Positions 1,208 through 62,696 of a stretch of 62,696 bases of DNA are shown here, in pieces. Source of the DNA: an uncultured Bacilli bacterium (GTDB taxonomy: Bacteria > Bacillota_I > Bacilli_A > RF39 > UBA660). The translations under genes and the position numbers were made by a program. The stretch spans positions 1-62,696 of the forward strand of contig CAKPFH010000001.1 of assembly GCA_934153655.1 (NCBI GenBank), written 5' to 3'. The notes beneath the pieces were generated by a model. The model searched no databases and was not told where the DNA came from. It saw only the letters and a program-made list of their open reading frames with translations. Within the stretch, counting starts at the first letter, position 1; each line of letters begins with the position of its first letter.

Positions 1208-3190
1208 TTAATATTTTAAAGCTATTGTAAATGGATTACTTTTAGTTCCAGCTCCACCTGTTATAACGATATTTGATTTTAGATTAATAGATGGGCGAGC
1301 AGCATGGCTATTAGACGGATAGCTGTAGTTGCCGTAACCGCCGCTGATAACGTACCAAACATAAGAAGGGCTAACAGGTGGTGTTATTAACCAAATAGTA
1401 CTTGAACTATTATAACCGTTTCCTTGTTGACTTGCAAACATTTCTCCATATCTTGGTAATCCTACTAAACCTGTCCATATAGTTGTTGTTTTAATACAAG
1501 TTTTTGTTGTTTCATTTGTATTATTTGTATTACATAAAGAATTTTTATAACTTATTCCCCTAGATACTTGCTTTATATAATATGTTCCTTTGTCTAACAT
1601 ATTTTTTGATGCTAAACTATTATACCAAGTATTGTTCAAATAATAATCCCAGTAATCGTCACTTGTACCATTTCCATAAGTTGTACTTGTACTAAATTGT
1701 TTAGTTAATTTTGTTGTTCCATCTTTTATATAATCATTTTTATTTAATTTAACTTTTCCATCTTCAATTGATACTATTCTATATAACTCATTTGTTGAAA
1801 TATCTCCATCTTCATCAAACACTACATACTCACCTATTGTTCTGGTATTTAATAATGTAGTATTTATAGTTGGTTGTTCCTTATCTCCTGATATTGTATA
1901 TGGATCATCTTTCGTTCCTGATCCACCCGAAAGTTGGATATCAGATTTTAGATTAATAGACGGGCGAGCAGCATAGCTATTAGACGGAGTGTAGCTGTAG
2001 TTGCCGTTACCGATGTAGTAAACGCTCCAAACAGTAGAAGAGCTATATGGATTTAATAACCACCACCAATATCCTATATTTAAATAACCAGAGCCATAAC
2101 TTGTATTTTTATAACTTAAATAATATTCATAACTGTTCAAAAGTCCTACAGGAGTATTCTTACCAATTGTCGAATTATTTATTAAAGTTGTTTCAGGTAA
2201 TTTAGTGCTTATTGCACTTGTACTACTTGTATTAGAATTTGTTATATTCCAAGTACTATTTTCTACTATTATATTTTGATAATTATATAAAGTATCTAAG
2301 AAATCTTCGTTTAACCATTGATACATGTACGAACCAGTATAAGTTGTGTCATCTTTTTTAGATATATCATAAAAATTTATATCATTATCTTGATTATAAG
2401 AAATAGTTGTAATTGGATCATCTGTTATCATTTTCATTGTTCCATCTGGATTTATGGCTGTTATTCTCCATAGTTTACCGGAATACCAAACATAGTTAAA
2501 GTTTATACAATCTTTTGTTCCTGATACATAAGTTATTCCATCTTCTTCCAAATAAGTTTTACATGTGTCTGTTTGTTTTTCCTTTAAATCATTTATAAAT
2601 ATATGAGATAATTCTTTGTTAGTATCATTATAAGCATAAATATTTACATTAAACTTAAATGTTTGAGATACACTATTTTGTTCATAATCTTTATCAATCC
2701 AAGCATATAGTCTATATTTATTAGTTTTAGTTCCTGGATTATTACCAATATAAATAACTTTACCTATTTGTTTATCTGCTTGATAAGTAGTATTTTCTAA
2801 ACTATTATATATTTTAGGACTTACTACTTGATTATTATTTTCATCTGTTAAAAAAACTTTAATATAATTACTATCTAAAGTATTAGTAGTATCACCTGTT
2901 AAATATAATTCATAGGAAATTGCTTTATCTGGATTGTTTATAGTACTTGAAACTGTAAAATCTATATATGATAATTTATCTAGATTTTGTAAAGCAAATT
3001 CATCACTTATGGGGTAAGCATTTACCATTTTAATAGAATTAGTTCCACTTATAAATTCGGCTTTTATGATATCACTTGTTAAAGTAAATGCTTGAACACT
3101 TTTAGAATATGTAAAAAATGCATATGCTGATCCTAATAGTATTATTATTAAAAATATTATTCCAAATACTAAAGCTTTTTTATTTTTCAT
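1208..3190 (-). CDS. Signal-anchored surface protein with two repeat domains, each ending ...AARPSINLKS..GG.GTK..P(Y/F)TI
   Basis: 660-aa ORF with AAGAGG upstream of the ATG. It has a hydrophobic N-terminus (MKNKKALVFGIIFLIIILLGSAYA). The two paralogous domain ends each carry a GC-rich patch (see findings). The same domain type occurs in the partial ORF at the right window edge. Confidence 0.75.
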   Translation of the reverse strand: MKNKKALVFGIIFLIIILLGSAYAFFTYSKSVQAFTLTSDIIKAEFISGTNSIKMVNAYPISDEFALQNLDKLSYIDFTVSSTINNPDKAISYELYLTGDTTNTLDSNYIKVFLTDENNNQVVSPKIYNSLENTTYQADKQIGKVIYIGNNPGTKTNKYRLYAWIDKDYEQNSVSQTFKFNVNIYAYNDTNKELSHIFINDLKEKQTDTCKTYLEEDGITYVSGTKDCINFNYVWYSGKLWRITAINPDGTMKMITDDPITTISYNQDNDINFYDISKKDDTTYTGSYMYQWLNEDFLDTLYNYQNIIVENSTWNITNSNTSSTSAISTKLPETTLINNSTIGKNTPVGLLNSYEYYLSYKNTSYGSGYLNIGYWWWLLNPYSSSTVWSVYYIGNGNYSYTPSNSYAARPSINLKSDIQLSGGSGTKDDPYTISGDKEQPTINTTLLNTRTIGEYVVFDEDGDISTNELYRIVSIEDGKVKLNKNDYIKDGTTKLTKQFSTSTTYGNGTSDDYWDYYLNNTWYNSLASKNMLDKGTYYIKQVSRGISYKNSLCNTNNTNETTKTCIKTTTIWTGLVGLPRYGEMFASQQGNGYNSSSTIWLITPPVSPSYVWYVISGGYGNYSYPSNSHAARPSINLKSNIVITGGAGTKSNPFTIALKY

Positions 3191-7477: not shown

Positions 7478-10400
7478 CTATGTATGACAACAAGTTTTGT
7501 AAGTCTTGCAAGCAAATGATGTACATTTATAGATAGTCATATCAGCAACATATGCTGTATTAGCGCCTCCTCGCCAGTTAGTATAAGTAACTTTGATAAA
7601 GGCTCCAACTCCTCCGGAATAAGTACAATAATTTTTATATGCCCCTATTGCACTTGCTGATTGTATACCTGTTGAATGTTTTGACCAACTAGTACACCTA
7701 CTACAAGTACTTCCAGCAGTTGATGCTGAATAACGGACTGAGCAGCCACAGGAAGAAGAAGCATTTCTAACTTTAACTGATACTGTTTTAGATTGAGTTG
7801 ATGAACCTTCAGCATTTGCACAGGTTACATTTATAGTTTTAGAACCAGTTGAAGATAAGTTAATAGTTGATGTATAAGTGTTACCAGATGTAGATGGTGC
7901 ATAAGAAGTTGAACCAATTTTAGCTGAATATGAAGTTATTGGTAAATCTGATCTACAAGTAACAGTTGCTGTTGCTCCTTTTATATAAGAACCACTACAA
8001 GTTGATGAGTCACCATTAACGGAAATTGTAATATCAGGGGCTGTTGCTTCGGTATTTTTAACTAAAACATTTACAGTTTCTGTACAACCATATTTAGTTT
8101 TAAAAGTTACTGTTGCACTTTTGGTTTGATTAACTGGAACGCTTCCAGAAACAGCACTAATAACACCACCTTTTGTTGCTGTTACCAAAGATGAGTTACT
8201 ACTTATTGCATCCGTCATTGATCCACATTGATTAGCAATTGATAAATTTTGTTGCATCTTTCGTTTAGATGTATTAGATGTAATATTTAAAACAACATCA
8301 CTTGGAGTTATACTTAAAAGTTTATTATTGCTAGTACATGAATAAGTATAACCACAACTATCGGCATTTGGAGTTGATTTTAAAGTTAAATTACTTAAAG
8401 TACTATTATTTTTTCTATTACCAGCTGCCCAACCTATTTTAGAACCATATACAACGGGATACCAGGTATGACCATCTCTCCAAGTATACTTTGAACTTTG
8501 AATATAAACTAAATCACCTTTACCAATAGATGCTAATTGAGGATAATCAGTTCCTGGTCCAGATCTTAATTTTAAATTATTGCCCACATTTCCAACAGCA
8601 GTTGCATATTTGTCTTGCCATACTAAGAATAAAGTCTTATCATTTTCAAGATATATTTGATCCCCAAAACAAAATTCTACATTGTTGCCACTTTGATTTG
8701 ATGATAAACCAAGTAATTGATATCCGTGATATTTATCTCCCCCATTATTTCTACATACTTTACCATTAGCATAAGTTGGAATATTAAACATTGCCCCATC
8801 AGTATTATATATAGTTTTAGTTTCAGTTTTACTTGTTAAATTATCAGTTGTTACAGTTGTTGAACTATTAGTATTATATTTTAAAGTAACATTTTTGGAA
8901 GTAATTGCAAATAAATCAATATCATCATGAAGAGTTATTTTTTGTCCTTGCGAATAAGTTGCTGTATGACTACTTGAATTTTCAGACCAACCAATTATTG
9001 TCCAACCAGATCTTGTAATTGTTGGTAAAGTAATACTACATTCATCAGGTAATTCATCTCCATTATAAGCATATCCTGCTGTACAACTAAGTTTATTAGA
9101 TGATGTAGAAGTTGCTCCATTTAAGTTGAAAGTTGCATAATAAGTATTTTGCGAAATACTTCTTGTAATAGCATAATAGCTTGGTAATTCAGCATCACCA
9201 GTTGGTTTATAAATAGTTACACTTTGATTTGCTGAATAATTAGCACTTGTTAATGAATCTCCATCATCACTATAACCAAGAGCTGTAAAGCCACTCTTTG
9301 GTGTAATAGTTGGAAGTGTTATGTTACAAGATGAACCATTAGTTGAATTACAACATTCTTTAGTATCAGTTGTCTTACTTCCTATTTTACTTGCTCCATT
9401 TATATAAATATTAGCACATACTTCAACACTATTTATTACTAAAGTTCCCTTTTGATAAGTTGGATTATAGTTAATGTTACCTGATCCATTATTAATACTA
9501 ATATTACTTGGAGTAATTGTTCCAGTGGTTGTTACATTTGAAGTTGAAGGTGTTAAAGTAATGCTTGTTGCTGTATCTCCACTTACTAAATTACTAACTG
9601 TTATATAACCTACTCCTGTTGCTATACTACTACCATAAGTAATGGTTTGATTATTAGCTTTAACTGTAATACTTCGTTTATTAATAGTAAAGTTTTTAGT
9701 TGTACTACTTTTATAGTTACCTTTACCTGTTATAGTAACTGTTGCAGTTCCTGCATTTATATTATTAGAATAACTTAAAGTATAATCTGTATTTAAAGTT
9801 AAAGTTTTAGACCCATCCTTAATAGTTACATTTGGTTTCTTTTCAGTTTTATCATAAGTATAAGAAGTATTATCTAAACTAATTGTTAAAGAACCAATGG
9901 TTTTAGAAATTATACTAAAGTTTGTACTACCACTAAAAGTTAAATTATAATTATTTGCTAAGAAAGTTCCATTATTAGCTAAAGCAAGGGTTCCTTTATT
10001 AATTGGATATGAACCAATATTTTCTCCTGCTGTTCTTTGAAGAGTTCCTGTGAACTTAGGAGTTTCCCCTGATATATTTCCGGAATAATTATAAGTTAAA
10101 GTAGGATCTGATGCTCCATATATTTTACTTTGATTACTTTTAGCTGTTACAGTTAAAACTTTCTTGTTAATTGAACAACTTAAATATTTAGTTGTTGTAT
10201 TATCAGAAAAAGCATAGTTTGAATTAGCAACATACATTACCATATAAGCTTTAGCATCCTTACCTTCATTATTTTTAATGGTTACATTATTTCCACCTTT
10301 AGCTAAAACTTGAGTTGCTCCGTTATAAGTTAGACTGTTACAAGTTCCAAGAGTTGCTGTTGCTAAACGATTTATTACTAAAGTTCCCTTTTGATAAGTT

Positions 10401-12514
10401 GGATTATAGTTAATGTTACCTGATCCATTATTAATACTAATATTACTTGGAGTAATTGTTCCAGTGGTTGTTACATTTGAAGTTGAAGGTGTTAAAGTAA
10501 TGCTTGTTGCTGTATCTCCACTTACTAAATTACTAACTGTTATATAACCTACTCCTGTTGCTATACTACTACCATAAGTAATGGTTTGATTATTAGCTTT
10601 AACTGTAATACTTCGTTTATTAATAGTAAAGTTTTTAGTTGTACTACTTTTATAGTTACCTTTACCTGTTATAGTAACTGTTGCAGTTCCTGCATTTATA
10701 TTATTAGAATAACTTAAAGTATAATCTGTATTTAAAGTTAAAGTTTTAGACCCATCCTTAATAGTTACATTTGGTTTCTTTTCAGTTTTATCATAAGTAT
10801 AAGAAGTATTATCTAAACTAATTGTTAAAGAACCAATGGTTTTAGAAATTATACTAAAGTTTGTACTACCACTAAAAGTTAAATTATAATTATTTGCTAA
10901 GAAAGTTCCATTATTAGCTAAAGCAAGGGTTCCTTTATTAATTGGATATGAACCAATATTTTCTCCTGCTGTTCTTTGAAGAGTTCCTGTGAACTTAGGA
11001 GTTTCCCCTGATATATTTCCGGAATAATTATAAGTTAAAGTAGGATCTGATGCTCCATATATTTTACTTTGATTACTTTTAGCTGTTACAGTTAAAACTT
11101 TCTTGTTAATTGAACAACTTAAATATTTAGTTGTTGTATTATCAGAAAAAGCATAATTGGAATTAGCAACATACATTACCATATAAGCTTTAGCATCCTT
11201 ACCTTCATTATTTTTAATAGTTACATTATTTCCACCTTTTGCAAGAACTTGGGTTGCTCCATTATAAGTTAAACTGTTACAAATTCCAAGAGTTGCTGTT
11301 GTTTGTCTATTAATTGTACAAGTAAATTTTACATCTTCTGTACTATTATCATTCCATTTATAATTATCATTTAATCTAGCAGATACTTCATAACTACCTG
11401 CATTTGTTCCTTTATTATTAATAAATGTATAACCAGTTCCTGCACTTTTTGTTAATACTTGTTCCACTCCATTATAAGTTAAACTATTACAATAAGTACT
11501 ATCTGGTTTATTAACCTTATTGTATACTTCAAATACAACTTTTCTTGTACTAGTATTACCTGCAAAGTCCTCTATTTCTATAATTAAATTAGTTAAGCCA
11601 AGACTTAGAGTTTTATTTATTTCAAAACTTGTATTAGTACTTTCAATATTAACATATTTCTTGGTATCTCCTTTTTCAAAGGAATATCTAATACTTTTAA
11701 CACCACTTTCTAAGTCTTTTATATCATTTACTTTTACATTTACATCAACACTACTACTAGTTATTTCTTTAGATACTTTATCTTGAACAACACCATTATT
11801 TTCTAAAATAATAAAATCAGGATTGTTTCTATCTACTTTTATATTAATATATTCTGTTTTAGTTTCTTGATTATTAGTTATACCATAGTATTTATAATTA
11901 CCACTTTCTAAAACATTAACACTACAAGTTCTAAGACCACTATCATTCATATTACAACTATAAGTTTTATCATCACTTTTAATTTCAACTTTAGATACAT
12001 CATTTAAAGTAGTAAAAGTTAATTTTACATATTTATTTACCCATTCCCCTTCTCGATAAATAGTTCCTGTATCATTTTTAGTAGGTACCATCTTTAAAGA
12101 ATAATCAACTTCTCCACTACATTCTCTTGAGGTAGTTTTATAATTATCTTGACTACAAATAAGACATACATAATAATTAGTTTTATCATAACTATTTTTA
12201 TAAGCTGCTAAATAACTGGTTTCTAAATCACATGTATTTCCTCTTTTATCTAAAACATTTGTTGTATACTTTAAGTCAATTACATCTTTTAATGATACTT
12301 TTTTTACATCTCCATACATCTGAGGTCTATCACTTGTATATGCAAAATACTCTCCACCTGTTACTAACAAAGATTCTTCTAAGCTTTTATAATAAGTAGT
12401 TCTTATATGTTTACTTATTCCAACATAAGCAGCACTAACAATACCAAGTATTATTGCTAATACGGCTATAGTTGATAATAATTCTACTAAAGTAAATCCT
12501 TTTTTATTTTTCAT
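7478..12514 (-). CDS. Giant (1678 aa) prepilin-type N-terminal cleavage/methylation domain protein; modular pilin-like adhesin
   Basis: The N-terminus is MKNKKG|FTLVELLSTIAVLAIILGIV (class III signal peptide: Gly-1, Phe+1, Glu+5). It carries MBG-like (KIYGASDPTLTYNYSG...NYNLTF) and ...TYDKTEKKPNVTIKDG..LTLNTDYTLSYSNNINAGTATVTITGKGNY repeats, and an SH3b-like segment (LKLRSGPGTDYPQLASIGKGDLVYI...WYPVVYGSKIGWAAG). The last 93 aa contain 9 Cys. Confidence 0.85.
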   Translation of the reverse strand: MKNKKGFTLVELLSTIAVLAIILGIVSAAYVGISKHIRTTYYKSLEESLLVTGGEYFAYTSDRPQMYGDVKKVSLKDVIDLKYTTNVLDKRGNTCDLETSYLAAYKNSYDKTNYYVCLICSQDNYKTTSRECSGEVDYSLKMVPTKNDTGTIYREGEWVNKYVKLTFTTLNDVSKVEIKSDDKTYSCNMNDSGLRTCSVNVLESGNYKYYGITNNQETKTEYINIKVDRNNPDFIILENNGVVQDKVSKEITSSSVDVNVKVNDIKDLESGVKSIRYSFEKGDTKKYVNIESTNTSFEINKTLSLGLTNLIIEIEDFAGNTSTRKVVFEVYNKVNKPDSTYCNSLTYNGVEQVLTKSAGTGYTFINNKGTNAGSYEVSARLNDNYKWNDNSTEDVKFTCTINRQTTATLGICNSLTYNGATQVLAKGGNNVTIKNNEGKDAKAYMVMYVANSNYAFSDNTTTKYLSCSINKKVLTVTAKSNQSKIYGASDPTLTYNYSGNISGETPKFTGTLQRTAGENIGSYPINKGTLALANNGTFLANNYNLTFSGSTNFSIISKTIGSLTISLDNTSYTYDKTEKKPNVTIKDGSKTLTLNTDYTLSYSNNINAGTATVTITGKGNYKSSTTKNFTINKRSITVKANNQTITYGSSIATGVGYITVSNLVSGDTATSITLTPSTSNVTTTGTITPSNISINNGSGNINYNPTYQKGTLVINRLATATLGTCNSLTYNGATQVLAKGGNNVTIKNNEGKDAKAYMVMYVANSNYAFSDNTTTKYLSCSINKKVLTVTAKSNQSKIYGASDPTLTYNYSGNISGETPKFTGTLQRTAGENIGSYPINKGTLALANNGTFLANNYNLTFSGSTNFSIISKTIGSLTISLDNTSYTYDKTEKKPNVTIKDGSKTLTLNTDYTLSYSNNINAGTATVTITGKGNYKSSTTKNFTINKRSITVKANNQTITYGSSIATGVGYITVSNLVSGDTATSITLTPSTSNVTTTGTITPSNISINNGSGNINYNPTYQKGTLVINSVEVCANIYINGASKIGSKTTDTKECCNSTNGSSCNITLPTITPKSGFTALGYSDDGDSLTSANYSANQSVTIYKPTGDAELPSYYAITRSISQNTYYATFNLNGATSTSSNKLSCTAGYAYNGDELPDECSITLPTITRSGWTIIGWSENSSSHTATYSQGQKITLHDDIDLFAITSKNVTLKYNTNSSTTVTTDNLTSKTETKTIYNTDGAMFNIPTYANGKVCRNNGGDKYHGYQLLGLSSNQSGNNVEFCFGDQIYLENDKTLFLVWQDKYATAVGNVGNNLKLRSGPGTDYPQLASIGKGDLVYIQSSKYTWRDGHTWYPVVYGSKIGWAAGNRKNNSTLSNLTLKSTPNADSCGYTYSCTSNNKLLSITPSDVVLNITSNTSKRKMQQNLSIANQCGSMTDAISSNSSLVTATKGGVISAVSGSVPVNQTKSATVTFKTKYGCTETVNVLVKNTEATAPDITISVNGDSSTCSGSYIKGATATVTCRSDLPITSYSAKIGSTSYAPSTSGNTYTSTINLSSTGSKTINVTCANAEGSSTQSKTVSVKVRNASSSCGCSVRYSASTAGSTCSRCTSWSKHSTGIQSASAIGAYKNYCTYSGGVGAFIKVTYTNWRGGANTAYVADMTIYKCTSFACKTYKTCCHT
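9432..11309. repeat. Tandem duplication, 2 x 939 bp (313 codons), inside the giant pilin gene
   Basis: Copy 9432-10370 and copy 10371-11309 are identical by eye over the first ~785 bp. They then diverge at scattered positions over the last ~150 bp. Confidence 0.95.
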
Positions 12515-12522
12515 AATCTCTC

Positions 12523-12882
12523 CTATACTTCTTTACAACTACTTGGAATATTTATATTTAAATCTTTATAAAGTTCTTTTGAACTTTGATCTTTGCAACT
12601 TAAATAGGCTTCCATTGTATTTATTTTAACATAACCATTACAAGTTATCTTATTATTTATTTTAGTAATACCAAGTTCACTTAAACAAATATATTCTTTT
12701 TTAGTATAATTAGGCATAGTCTTAACATATTTTATCATCATATCTTTATAAGTATTAAATTGTTTATTTTGATTAGAAGTATAAATATTTTTAACACTTG
12801 GAAATATTAATAACATTATTAAAGACATTAAAACAATAACAGCAAGTAATTCAACTAAAGTAAAGCCTTTATTTTTTATCAT
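12523..12882 (-). CDS. Type IV pilin/pseudopilin-like protein
   Basis: MIKNKG|FTLVELLAVIVLMSLIMLLIF prepilin motif. The start was refined to the ATG at 12882 with a GGTGA RBS; the track start at 12891 is a GTG inside the RBS. Confidence 0.8.
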   Translation of the reverse strand: MIKNKGFTLVELLAVIVLMSLIMLLIFPSVKNIYTSNQNKQFNTYKDMMIKYVKTMPNYTKKEYICLSELGITKINNKITCNGYVKINTMEAYLSCKDQSSKELYKDLNINIPSSCKEV

Positions 12883-12957
12883 TCTTATCACCTTTTATTT
12901 TACTATTTTAGTATATCAAAAAAAGTAAAAAAAAAATAGATATTTTCATAATATTAT

Positions 12958-48145: not shown

Positions 48146-48631
48146 TTATTGAGTCTTAGCAAATACGTGAGCTGAATTTAAACTACCTTCAGCAACAGCA
48201 GTAGTTGTTCCTGATGCATTAGATATATAATGGTCTCCATTAGCATCTTTTAAATAAATTGCATATGTAAATGTTTGGCAATTATCAGATGCAGTAACTG
48301 TTACTTTAGAACCAGCTTTATCATAAGCAGTTCCCCATGGAGTTTTATCTGTATCAGCACCTTTAGTTTTAATATTACTTAATGCTATATCAAATGTTCC
48401 AGCACAAGTTGTTACATAAGTACCAGATCCACCTAACATTGCTTCAACCATATCTGCTTCTACTAAAGATTTAGCACCTTCAACGAATTGCTTAGCTGAA
48501 GCAACAAAAGCATTTTTTCTTGTTGAATCAAGTACGTTAGTAATAGCAACAGCAGCAATACCCATAACAATTGCAAGAACAACGATAACAGCAAGTAATT
48601 CAACTAAAGTAAAACCTTTTTTATTTTTCAT
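48146..48631 (-). CDS. Type IV pilin (major-pilin-like)
   Basis: MKNKKG|FTLVELLAVIVVLAIVMGIAAVAITNVL. The ATG at 48631 is preceded by GGAGGA. The gene is noticeably GC-richer than its neighbours. Its stop codon lies inside the IS terminal repeat. Confidence 0.85.
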   Translation of the reverse strand: MKNKKGFTLVELLAVIVVLAIVMGIAAVAITNVLDSTRKNAFVASAKQFVEGAKSLVEADMVEAMLGGSGTYVTTCAGTFDIALSNIKTKGADTDKTPWGTAYDKAGSKVTVTASDNCQTFTYAIYLKDANGDHYISNASGTTTAVAEGSLNSAHVFAKTQ

Positions 48632-48731
48632 TTTTCCTCCTATCATTTATAACTAAATCTTATCACAAGAAAAAATTATAGTCAAGTCATCTTTACTATT
48701 TTTTTAAAATATGCTATAATCAAAGTGTTTT

Positions 48732-55053: not shown

Positions 55054-56247
55054 ATGAAAAAGAAAGTATTTTTAATATCATTTATTATGGTTATTTTACT
55101 ATCTACTTTTATCTGTATTTATGTTTTTACTAGAAAAGATAATAAGATTAAATTAGATACAACTATCACATCAAGTATTGTTCTTGATATTAATCCTAGT
55201 TTAAAAATAGAACTTAATAAAGAAAACAAAGTTATAAACTTAATTGGATTAAATGAAGATGGTAAAAAAGTTATTATAGATGATTATAAGGGTAAGGTTT
55301 TGGATGAGGTAATTGAAAGTATTTTAGAAAAATCTCATAGTTTAGAATACTTAAAAAATGATACTACTATTTTAGTAAGTGTCGATGGTACTTATAAGGC
55401 AGATGACTTGAAAACTATTATTAGTGAATATTTAGAAAATAAAAGTATTAAAGGAGAAATAATTATTCCTACTATAACTGAAAGTTCCAAAGAAATTGCT
55501 ACTAAGTATAACATAACTGAAAGTAAGGCTTCGTATCTTGAAGAAATAATTAAAGATACATCTCTTAAAATAGAAGATGTAAAAGATATGAGTGTTCAAG
55601 ATGCAAAAGAAAAAGTTCAAGAAGAAATTAAAAAACAAGAAGAAAAAAAACAAGAAGAAAAGAAACAACAAGAACAAAACAAGAATAATACTACTAATAA
55701 CAACAATAATAATAATTCTAGTTCTAGTAGTCTTACTCCCCCAGCCTCTTCTAGAGATACAAGTGGGGCTTGGTGTACATTTAATAAAAATAAACCATAT
55801 AATTATGTTTATGATTATAAAGAATTAATAGGAGAAGCAAAGGTCAGAGAAATTGCTACTAATCATTTAGCAGGTATTTATTTTAAAACAAGCAGCCTTG
55901 CTATTTATGACGATATAAAAGGATCTTACTGTAAAACTTATAAATTTACCGGTTTAAATGATGACTTTAAATATTATTTAACAATTGATTCTGTAACTGG
56001 CAGTATTTTAGAAGAAAGTAAAGAAGAAATGGAAAAACCAAGTATAAGTAAGGATAAAGCCAAAGAAATTGGTTTAACTTATTTTAAACTTCAAGAAAGT
56101 GAATGTGAACTTGTTCAAGCTGATTTAAGTAGCACTTTTACAGTTTTAAAATATACTTTTATAGCAAGATGTAATGGTACTTATTATACAGCTGATATAG
56201 ATGGTAAAACAGGTAGTTTATCAGGTGATAGAACCTGGAAAAATTAA
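55054..56247 (+). CDS. Membrane-anchored protein with PepSY-like domains
   Basis: N-terminal TM, a KKQEE/N/S low-complexity linker, and a C-terminal PepSY-like unit (ISKDKAKEIGL...YTADIDGKTGSL). Confidence 0.55.
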   Translation: MKKKVFLISFIMVILLSTFICIYVFTRKDNKIKLDTTITSSIVLDINPSLKIELNKENKVINLIGLNEDGKKVIIDDYKGKVLDEVIESILEKSHSLEYLKNDTTILVSVDGTYKADDLKTIISEYLENKSIKGEIIIPTITESSKEIATKYNITESKASYLEEIIKDTSLKIEDVKDMSVQDAKEKVQEEIKKQEEKKQEEKKQQEQNKNNTTNNNNNNNSSSSSLTPPASSRDTSGAWCTFNKNKPYNYVYDYKELIGEAKVREIATNHLAGIYFKTSSLAIYDDIKGSYCKTYKFTGLNDDFKYYLTIDSVTGSILEESKEEMEKPSISKDKAKEIGLTYFKLQESECELVQADLSSTFTVLKYTFIARCNGTYYTADIDGKTGSLSGDRTWKN

Positions 56248-62107: not shown

Positions 62108-62290
62108 AAAAAAAGGCACTACCAAAGGACGAAAAAACCGTGGTACCACCTTAATTATTAACTTAAAACTATAACGCATTACCGTTTCATATGAACACAT
62201 CAAAAGTGATTTGAATATTACTTATTTATCTATTTTCACCAATCATAGACTCTCTAAAAAACTTATAATACTCCGTCTTTCTCATCTGTT
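62108..62290 (-). promoter_or_regulatory. T-box leader (Ile) of ileS, with terminator/antiterminator
   Basis: The minus strand carries AGAGAGU...GGUGAAAA stem I elements and the T-box core AAGGUGGUACCACGG. A terminator stem GGUGGUACCA/UGGUAGUGCC is followed by U7. The candidate specifier is AUC at 62208-62210. The promoter is TTGATT (62324-62329), 17 nt, TATTAT (62301-62306). Confidence 0.8.
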
Positions 62291-62344
62291 TATGTATTAA
62301 ATAATACCAAACTTTATTAAGAAAATCAAGAGATTTAAGTTTTT

Positions 62345-62696
62345 TTATGATAATTTATATGGATTTTCCATAGTTCCATCGCCACTTTTTATTGAAACAT
62401 TAGAATTTAAATTGATAACTGTGCGCACGCCATAAGTGTAGCTGACAGTGCCCCAATCGCGCAACTCACCAGTCGAGTACACGACCCAAACGCTAGCATA
62501 GGCGTTGTGCTGGGTGAAGTTAGAAGGCGTCATAGTAAACCAAAAATTATTTGTTCTTAAATAATAATCTTCATTTTTATAATTATCCCTTCCCCCAGCA
62601 AGAGAAACTTCATCAGCCATTATTAAAGCAATTGGATATGTTAATTTTCCATTACCAATATTTGTTGAAACACTAAATTTATCTGTTTTTTCACAA
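62345..62696 (-). CDS. Surface protein fragment (5' end beyond the window) with the ...GVRTVINL....GDGT..NPY C-terminal domain
   Basis: The reading frame stays open upstream of the track ATG to the window edge (...CEKTDKFSVSTNIGNGKLTYPIALIMADEV...). The domain is of the same type as the two domains of the 1208-3190 protein and contains a GC-rich patch. Confidence 0.75.
   Translation of the reverse strand, partial: CEKTDKFSVSTNIGNGKLTYPIALIMADEVSLAGGRDNYKNEDYYLRTNNFWFTMTPSNFTQHNAYASVWVVYSTGELRDWGTVSYTYGVRTVINLNSNVSIKSGDGTMENPYKLS

Follow-up and report, generated by a model that had tools for sequence, protein, structure and literature searches.

In a diversity-generating retroelement (DGR), a reverse transcriptase (RT) acting together with bAvd copies the RNA of a template repeat (TR) and misincorporates opposite template adenines. 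DUF6273 domains are among the published targets of such elements, with the variable region (VR) at the C-terminus and a C-lectin-like fold (PMC10743442, PMC11792537, bioRxiv 10.1101/2024.10.15.618418): the DUF6273 targets of gut phages comprise the tentaclins and the Mtd-like targets of phages nd4/nd12, Faecalibacterium prophages and Toutatisvirus. VRs that lie remote from a cassette, in dispersed paralogues, have been documented as well (PMC7517822).

The locus that we describe here lies at one end of a 62,696-nt stretch of DNA (contig CAKPFH010000001.1, assembly GCA_934153655.1; 'the window' throughout). The host is an uncultured gut Erysipelotrichaceae-like bacterium with a surface protein of ~850 aa in several paralogues per genome, and loci fetched from its relatives are referred to by our own handles (L002, L007 and so on). 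The window protein resembles the phage DUF6273 targets in having the VR at the end of its C-terminal domain, followed by a ...VRP/A-V-I-N-L motif, in Asn-codon (AAC) templated variation, and in that one cassette may serve more than one target. The RT of a complete cassette found in a relative (L060) also gives tblastn matches that include the RTs of phage nd12 and of Faecalibacterium phages, at no more than 35% identity to the phage RTs in the collection. Unlike the phage targets, the window protein is chromosomal, about 850 aa long and anchored in the membrane at its N-terminus, rather than being a phage tail/head protein, and its domain stays under the Pfam threshold for DUF6273.

With the cellular remote targets of Trichodesmium, Nostoc and Treponema denticola it shares dispersed paralogues, 3'-terminal VRs, TR homology and placement at non-DGR loci (PMC7517822; see also PMC4891356), but it differs from the cyanobacterial and Treponema targets in the phylum of the host, in protein architecture and in that no cassette was located in the ~73 kb searched. 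[quoted passage not shown] Compared with BPP-1, the window is without the cassette parts TR, Avd and RT. Remote VRs in dispersed paralogues and DUF6273-type targets are thus already known; what is new is the host lineage, the chromosomal membrane-anchored architecture of ~850 aa, a domain subfamily below the Pfam threshold, and a series of cassette states from active through relic to orphan.

Position and codon footprint of the patch

The 3' end of the target gene (116 codons and the stop) occupies 62345..62696 on the minus strand and is truncated by the window edge; the encoded C-terminal 116 residues end ...GVRTVINLNSNVSIKSGDGTMENPYKLS*. The initial annotation had singled out a GC-rich patch of about 110 nt here, and the coding sequence that it quoted is present on the minus strand. 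Its estimate of the length holds, but the limits it gave (62421-62533) have to be moved to 62419..62529 (minus strand), the 111 nt that are homologous to the TR of L007 and that we treat as the VR. The GVRTVINL stretch does follow the patch, as had been reported, and the VR ends 24 codons (rather than about 27) before the stop at 62345-62347. At 111 nt, it falls within the ~100-150 nt at the 3' end of a target ORF by which a VR is recognised.

The codon footprint that had drawn attention to the patch is pronounced: G+C is 56.8% in the VR core (62419-62529) versus 23.6% for the whole window, and third positions of its 37 codons are A1 C16 G9 T11, against background frequencies of.41 (A),.045 (C),.056 (G) and.49 (T) in all long frames of the window. 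The chance of at least 25 G/C third positions is 7e-17, and that of zero A at third positions (A3) in 37 codons is ~4e-9. The anomaly is one-sided, A being depleted (A3 1/37) and T retained (T3 11/37). It had been conceded that similar GC-rich patches in many unrelated genes would speak against a DGR; a sliding scan of all frames of the window, however, recovers the GC-rich, A-poor-third signature at three genuine coding sites only, this patch and two patches within gene 1208-3190. A fourth match, 55435-55824, is an antisense-frame artefact and not a real coding patch. In very AT-rich genomes, raw sequence alone can be enough to spot a DGR VR, as a brief rise in G+C in which A3 is missing and T3 is kept: the A3-free footprint picked out each of the three VR-like patches of the window, and the TR of the related strain as well.

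Gene 1208-3190 (minus strand) encodes a 660-aa protein with a Pfam DUF6273 match and two A3-free GC-rich patches, at about 1297-1373 and 1966-2046, whose differences from one another fall mainly on NNC codons. No TR matching these two patches was found in the window; where the contig could be followed past the left edge of the window (L010), an IS110 transposase was met and no cassette.

The GC-rich 3' boundary of the VR, GGCGTGCGCACAG (62419..62431, minus strand), occupies the position of the IMH (initiation of mutagenic homing) element and, judged by this placement, may act as one. TR/VR homology in L007 and L060 stops right after this motif, and GGCGTGCGC(G/A)CAG closes the homology in L007, L060 and the window alike. 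The window copy carries G>A relative to the consensus of the family and the TR, GGCGTGCGCGCAG (GCGCGCAG in the consensus vs GCGCACAG in the window). The consensus form is present in L007, L008, L009, L013, L060 and L061, and L062 has CGT at the adjacent base, so that the copies end ...GCACAG in the window and ...GTGCAG in L062 (L062:12485-12497, compared with window 62419-62431). Over ~450 nt around the VR, the window and L062 differ twice only, by transitions that affect the two strands of a single CpG within GCGCGC; deamination driven by cytosine methylation could be the cause.

A paralogous family of surface proteins

The gene had been described as cut by the window edge, and its full length is seen at L002:7188-9743, which encodes 851 aa (P0002) and is identical to the window over the shared part. 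P0002 has an N-terminal hydrophobic membrane anchor and a C-terminal DUF6273-like (putatively C-type-lectin-like) domain. L002 is one of five further assemblies (L002-L006) retrieved through the neighbouring IleRS protein; it spans the gene, and the window and the other four break within it. Paralogues agree at 100% in the stretch just 5' of the patch, and the breaks are accordingly repeat-induced. As for its make-up, the gene is mosaic, with segments from each of two paralogues that L062 carries in tandem. Between the VR gene and ileS, most of the gap is taken up by the T-box leader of ileS (62122-62294, minus strand; 82 bits, E 1.9e-18, below the Rfam gathering score of 93); at the Rfam gathering threshold, no RNA family was found near the patch.

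Relatives of the 851-aa protein number more than 200 at 47-89% identity when the full-length protein is the query; such a query is required, as the 116-aa fragment retrieves only one relative in a word-based protein search. Many of these relatives are paralogues rather than orthologues. For example, L062 has two family copies in tandem, and L008 holds two further copies (from a Hadza sample shared with L004, at similar coverage); the sampled strains have at least three to four family copies per genome. One cluster member is annotated as derived from an Erysipelotrichaceae MAG. In a relative with 61% identity (L001), an in-frame TAG at L001:391-393 splits the gene and the patch has partly ordinary codon usage (A3 6/40); this relative may be a decaying copy.

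The initial annotation had proposed paralogy with the protein of gene 1208-3190. The C-terminal domains of the two are indeed homologous: hhalign aligns the C-terminal domain with the DUF6273 domain of the 1208-3190 protein at 96.5% probability (E 9e-10), and the alignment lays patch on patch, the 62419-62529 patch falling on the first patch of that protein. The Pfam profile itself (DUF6273, PF19789; gathering threshold 23.5 bits) matches neither the fragment nor full-length P0002, and three of 10 relatives score 16-19 bits over the last ~45 profile positions only. A profile of the C-terminal domain collects about 7,455 clusters (50% identity) at E<=1e-3, most of them below the Pfam DUF6273 threshold. 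A profile search of the PDB with this domain gave no sequence matches, and an AlphaFold2 model of the last 215 residues has a pLDDT of 39.8, too low for use; a lectin-type fold is nevertheless what we infer from the hhalign match to DUF6273 together with the published DUF6273 models.

Variation within the family is concentrated in the patch and has the codon-position pattern of a DGR-type VR, as had been suggested. Among five paralogues (L002, L007, L008, L009 and L013), 17/37, 12/37 and 2/37 VR columns vary at codon positions 1, 2 and 3, versus 27, 23 and 39 of 197 columns in the upstream flank of the same genes (Fisher p=1e-4); the flanks show ordinary synonymous change, with position 3 varying most. 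First and second positions that vary while third positions stay fixed, next to a GC-rich 3' boundary common to the family, point to repeated overwriting from one template with A-specific errors, a pattern that ordinary divergence, selection or foreign DNA would not be expected to yield. Paralogues at separate loci have the non-variable VR scaffold exactly in common. At the protein level, the patch is the peak of variability among 28 relatives of 67-100% identity (pairwise difference 0.61 vs about 0.2 elsewhere).

Variation between strains, which a DGR should leave behind, is missing at the window locus itself, where near-identical strains were compared, but it is found between strains for a sister paralogue and between L060 and L061. 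In the sister paralogue, there are six changes in the 111-nt VR between strains that are 99.4% identical elsewhere (Poisson 3.5e-5), which points to a measure of fairly recent DGR activity within the species group.

Template repeats and cassettes in relatives

A search for a template repeat and an RT had been among the proposed checks on a DGR, and these parts were found in relatives and not in the window. In the window, an A-tolerant sliding scan of both strands for a TR gave self matches and poly-A artefacts only; neither a motif scan nor tblastn with the L060 RT detected an RT in L002 or in the 62.7 kb of the window; the L060 bAvd, used as a tblastn query, found no Avd in the window or in any locus other than L060/L061; and tblastn with the L060 130-aa ORF gave no match in the window. 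Taken with the 10 kb past the window edge, no TR, Avd or RT is found within about 73 kb. A 39-nt VR core pattern recovered every VR of the fetched loci but gave no match, to the VR or otherwise, in public genome, viral and metagenome collections, which are without the source organism; the portion of this genome that was searched is ~73 kb. The marks by which intact DGR parts can be told in sequence are IGNMTSQ ... YVRYMDD for the RT, and ...TTTTCGCCTTCTAAC and GGCGTGCGCGCAGATTCCT as flanks of the TR.

A complete cassette adjoins a family member of 52% identity in L060 and L061, in the order target, TR1, 130-aa ORF, bAvd, RT and degenerate second TR. The bAvd is assigned to PF22296 and the RT to RVT_1 (with IGNMTSQ and YVRYMDD); the 130-aa ORF (L060:13268-13660), between TR and bAvd, matches MutS domain I (E 3e-7), and the second TR (L060:15245-15361), downstream of the RT, has the same 3' flank as TR1. 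Mismatches between VR and TR1 of L060 fall on 18/32 A sites vs 1/80 non-A sites. Of the 22,571 nt compared between L060 and L061, 51 differ; the VR accounts for 21 of these and an N-terminal tract of the target gene for the other 30, with zero differences elsewhere. The 30 differences of this tract (L060/L061:10234-10891) are clustered and probably reflect recombination from a paralogue. From these comparisons, the family is a bona fide DGR target family, one that is being diversified at present in the L060/L061 relative.

Nearer to the window, a codon-signature scan of the fetched loci found a TR, the sole one for this clade, in the related strain L007 (L007:12712-12822), 137 nt past the stop of the orthologous gene: a non-coding, Asn-rich sequence that translates to SPSNFNQNNANANVWRVIPAGEMNDLGNVGNTNGVRA. 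The annotation had supposed that this patch, if written by a DGR, used a template different from that of the patches in gene 1208-3190 or had diverged long ago; the L007 TR, which corresponds to exactly the 111 nt, is such a distinct template, and there is in addition the complete cassette of L060/L061. By blastn, it matches window 62529-62419 at 81% over 111 nt (E 7e-24), and the window VR mismatches it at 11/27 TR-A sites vs 10/84 non-A sites (Fisher p=0.003), so that adenine sites are enriched but not exclusive. Since two positions of the L007 TR are at odds with every VR examined, it has apparently drifted and would be a decayed or diverged copy. The cassette around it is a relic: 3' of the TR are frameshifted RT remnants that match residues 282-361 of the L060 RT only, and ORF130, avd and the RT catalytic core are missing. 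This relic is base-for-base identical in L065.

With the RT remnant as query, the one match was a split RT, carried by a contig of 2.5 kb (L059). This DGR-type RT (L059:50-1915) is related to that of L060 and is broken exactly at YMD|D by an insert that resembles a group II intron with a 431-456-aa RVT_1 ORF; the stop of the RT is followed by a sequence whose flanks are like those of a TR.

Quiescent or live: the status of the window copy

The DGR origin of the patch is, as judged from sequence comparison, near certain, and we think it fairly probable that the patch is the VR of a surface-protein paralogue in a remote or orphan, apparently quiescent copy. The VR is identical in six assemblies (the window and L002-L006) that are 99.92-99.97% identical over 7-14 kb, L002-L006 having 3-9 SNPs per 7-14 kb relative to the window; these assemblies are near-clonal, and they come from at least three studies. 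The VR state of L062 is that of the window, apart from one CpG in the non-variable 3' motif where two transitions separate them, and the VR of L007/L065 differs from that of the window by five scattered nucleotides. Several 90%-identity clusters keep the VR constant and vary in the remainder of the protein. In the other direction, the footprint itself has almost no AT-directed decay, which, like the changes in the sister paralogue, speaks for some recent activity in the species group. The lack of a TR and RT in the window and of variation among near-identical strains argues against current activity, not against a DGR origin, and the window VR is probably a remote or orphan copy, quiescent in the sampled lineage.

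We prefer this to a live remote target, an unlikely but serious competitor, in which the DGR origin is the same, an intact cassette sits elsewhere in the genome and the strains merely share the latest state of the VR. A GC-rich, A3-free footprint that is intact under strong AT pressure is what a live target would show, as are a non-variable scaffold exactly alike in paralogues at different loci and the VR-focused change in the sister paralogue between strains of 99.4% identity, and remote targets served in trans are known (PMC7517822). Yet the six assemblies from at least three studies hold zero VR differences, and the same state recurs in L062 and, with 5 nt changed, in L007/L065; of the two changes observed between lineages, each is an ordinary transition within the non-variable GC motif, and one belongs to the window; and the only cassette of the close relatives is without avd and the RT core.

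Readings that dispense with a DGR fare much worse. If the patch were a foreign fragment of higher G+C, A3 and T3 should both drop, and T3 is 11/37 where A3 is 1/37; if it were a hot spot of diversifying selection or gene conversion, selection alone could not fix third positions while positions 1 and 2 randomise. It is true that the paralogues recombine (the gene being a mosaic of the two tandem L062 paralogues), that VR states are common to otherwise different genes and that the window has no RT, but the Asn-rich non-coding copy with RT remnants beside the orthologue, and the homologue that adjoins a cassette with adenine-specific mismatches, leave a non-DGR origin largely refuted and very improbable. 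Slighter still is the likelihood that the patch arose in assembly, as an artefact or chimera where the contig ends: the gene is indeed interrupted in the window and in four of the five other assemblies, but each break falls upstream of the patch, in the stretch that is 100% identical between paralogues, and six independent assemblies agree exactly on the patch and on how it joins the ileS leader.

For the preferred reading, that of a quiescent remote or orphan copy, the mechanism would be the one established for DGRs, which our data show only in a relative. The cDNA made from the TR would replace the 111-nt VR at the 3' end of the target gene, and this rewriting would randomise mostly Asn (AAC-type) codons on a putative ligand-binding face of the C-terminal DUF6273-like domain. 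The template would avoid adenine where variation is not tolerated, and a template without adenine at invariant positions would account for the GC-rich, A3-free footprint in a genome of 24% G+C. We infer that the window VR itself was written by an L060-like cassette and that the VR is now inactive: the sampled strains would have diverged without further rewriting of it, and orf130, avd and the catalytic part of the RT are missing from the sole cassette found among close relatives.

A broader possibility, which we offer tentatively, is that in this very AT-rich lineage a single chromosomal DGR serves the dispersed family of ~850-aa membrane-anchored, lectin-type surface proteins in trans, with loss of the cassette in some strains (as in L007/L065, where avd and the RT core are deleted) freezing the repertoire and recombination between paralogues reshuffling it. 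The window patch would then be one frozen member of a distributed, decaying hypervariation system, and the domain family, with about 7,500 clusters at 50% identity, would stand beside DUF6273 as a large sister group that escapes Pfam.

The list of DGR targets gains a chromosomal, multi-copy surface-protein family of gut Erysipelotrichaceae-like bacteria, and the loci can be ranged by cassette state: active in L060/L061, stripped of avd and the RT core in L007/L065, and in the window an apparently orphan VR. Such a graded set could serve the study of how DGR targets decay or are kept up after loss of the retroelement. Elsewhere in the window, prepilin-type N-terminal methylation motifs are found in three proteins (7478-12514, 12523-12891 and 48146-48646, minus strand), one of which is 1678 aa long and also has MBG and SH3 domains.
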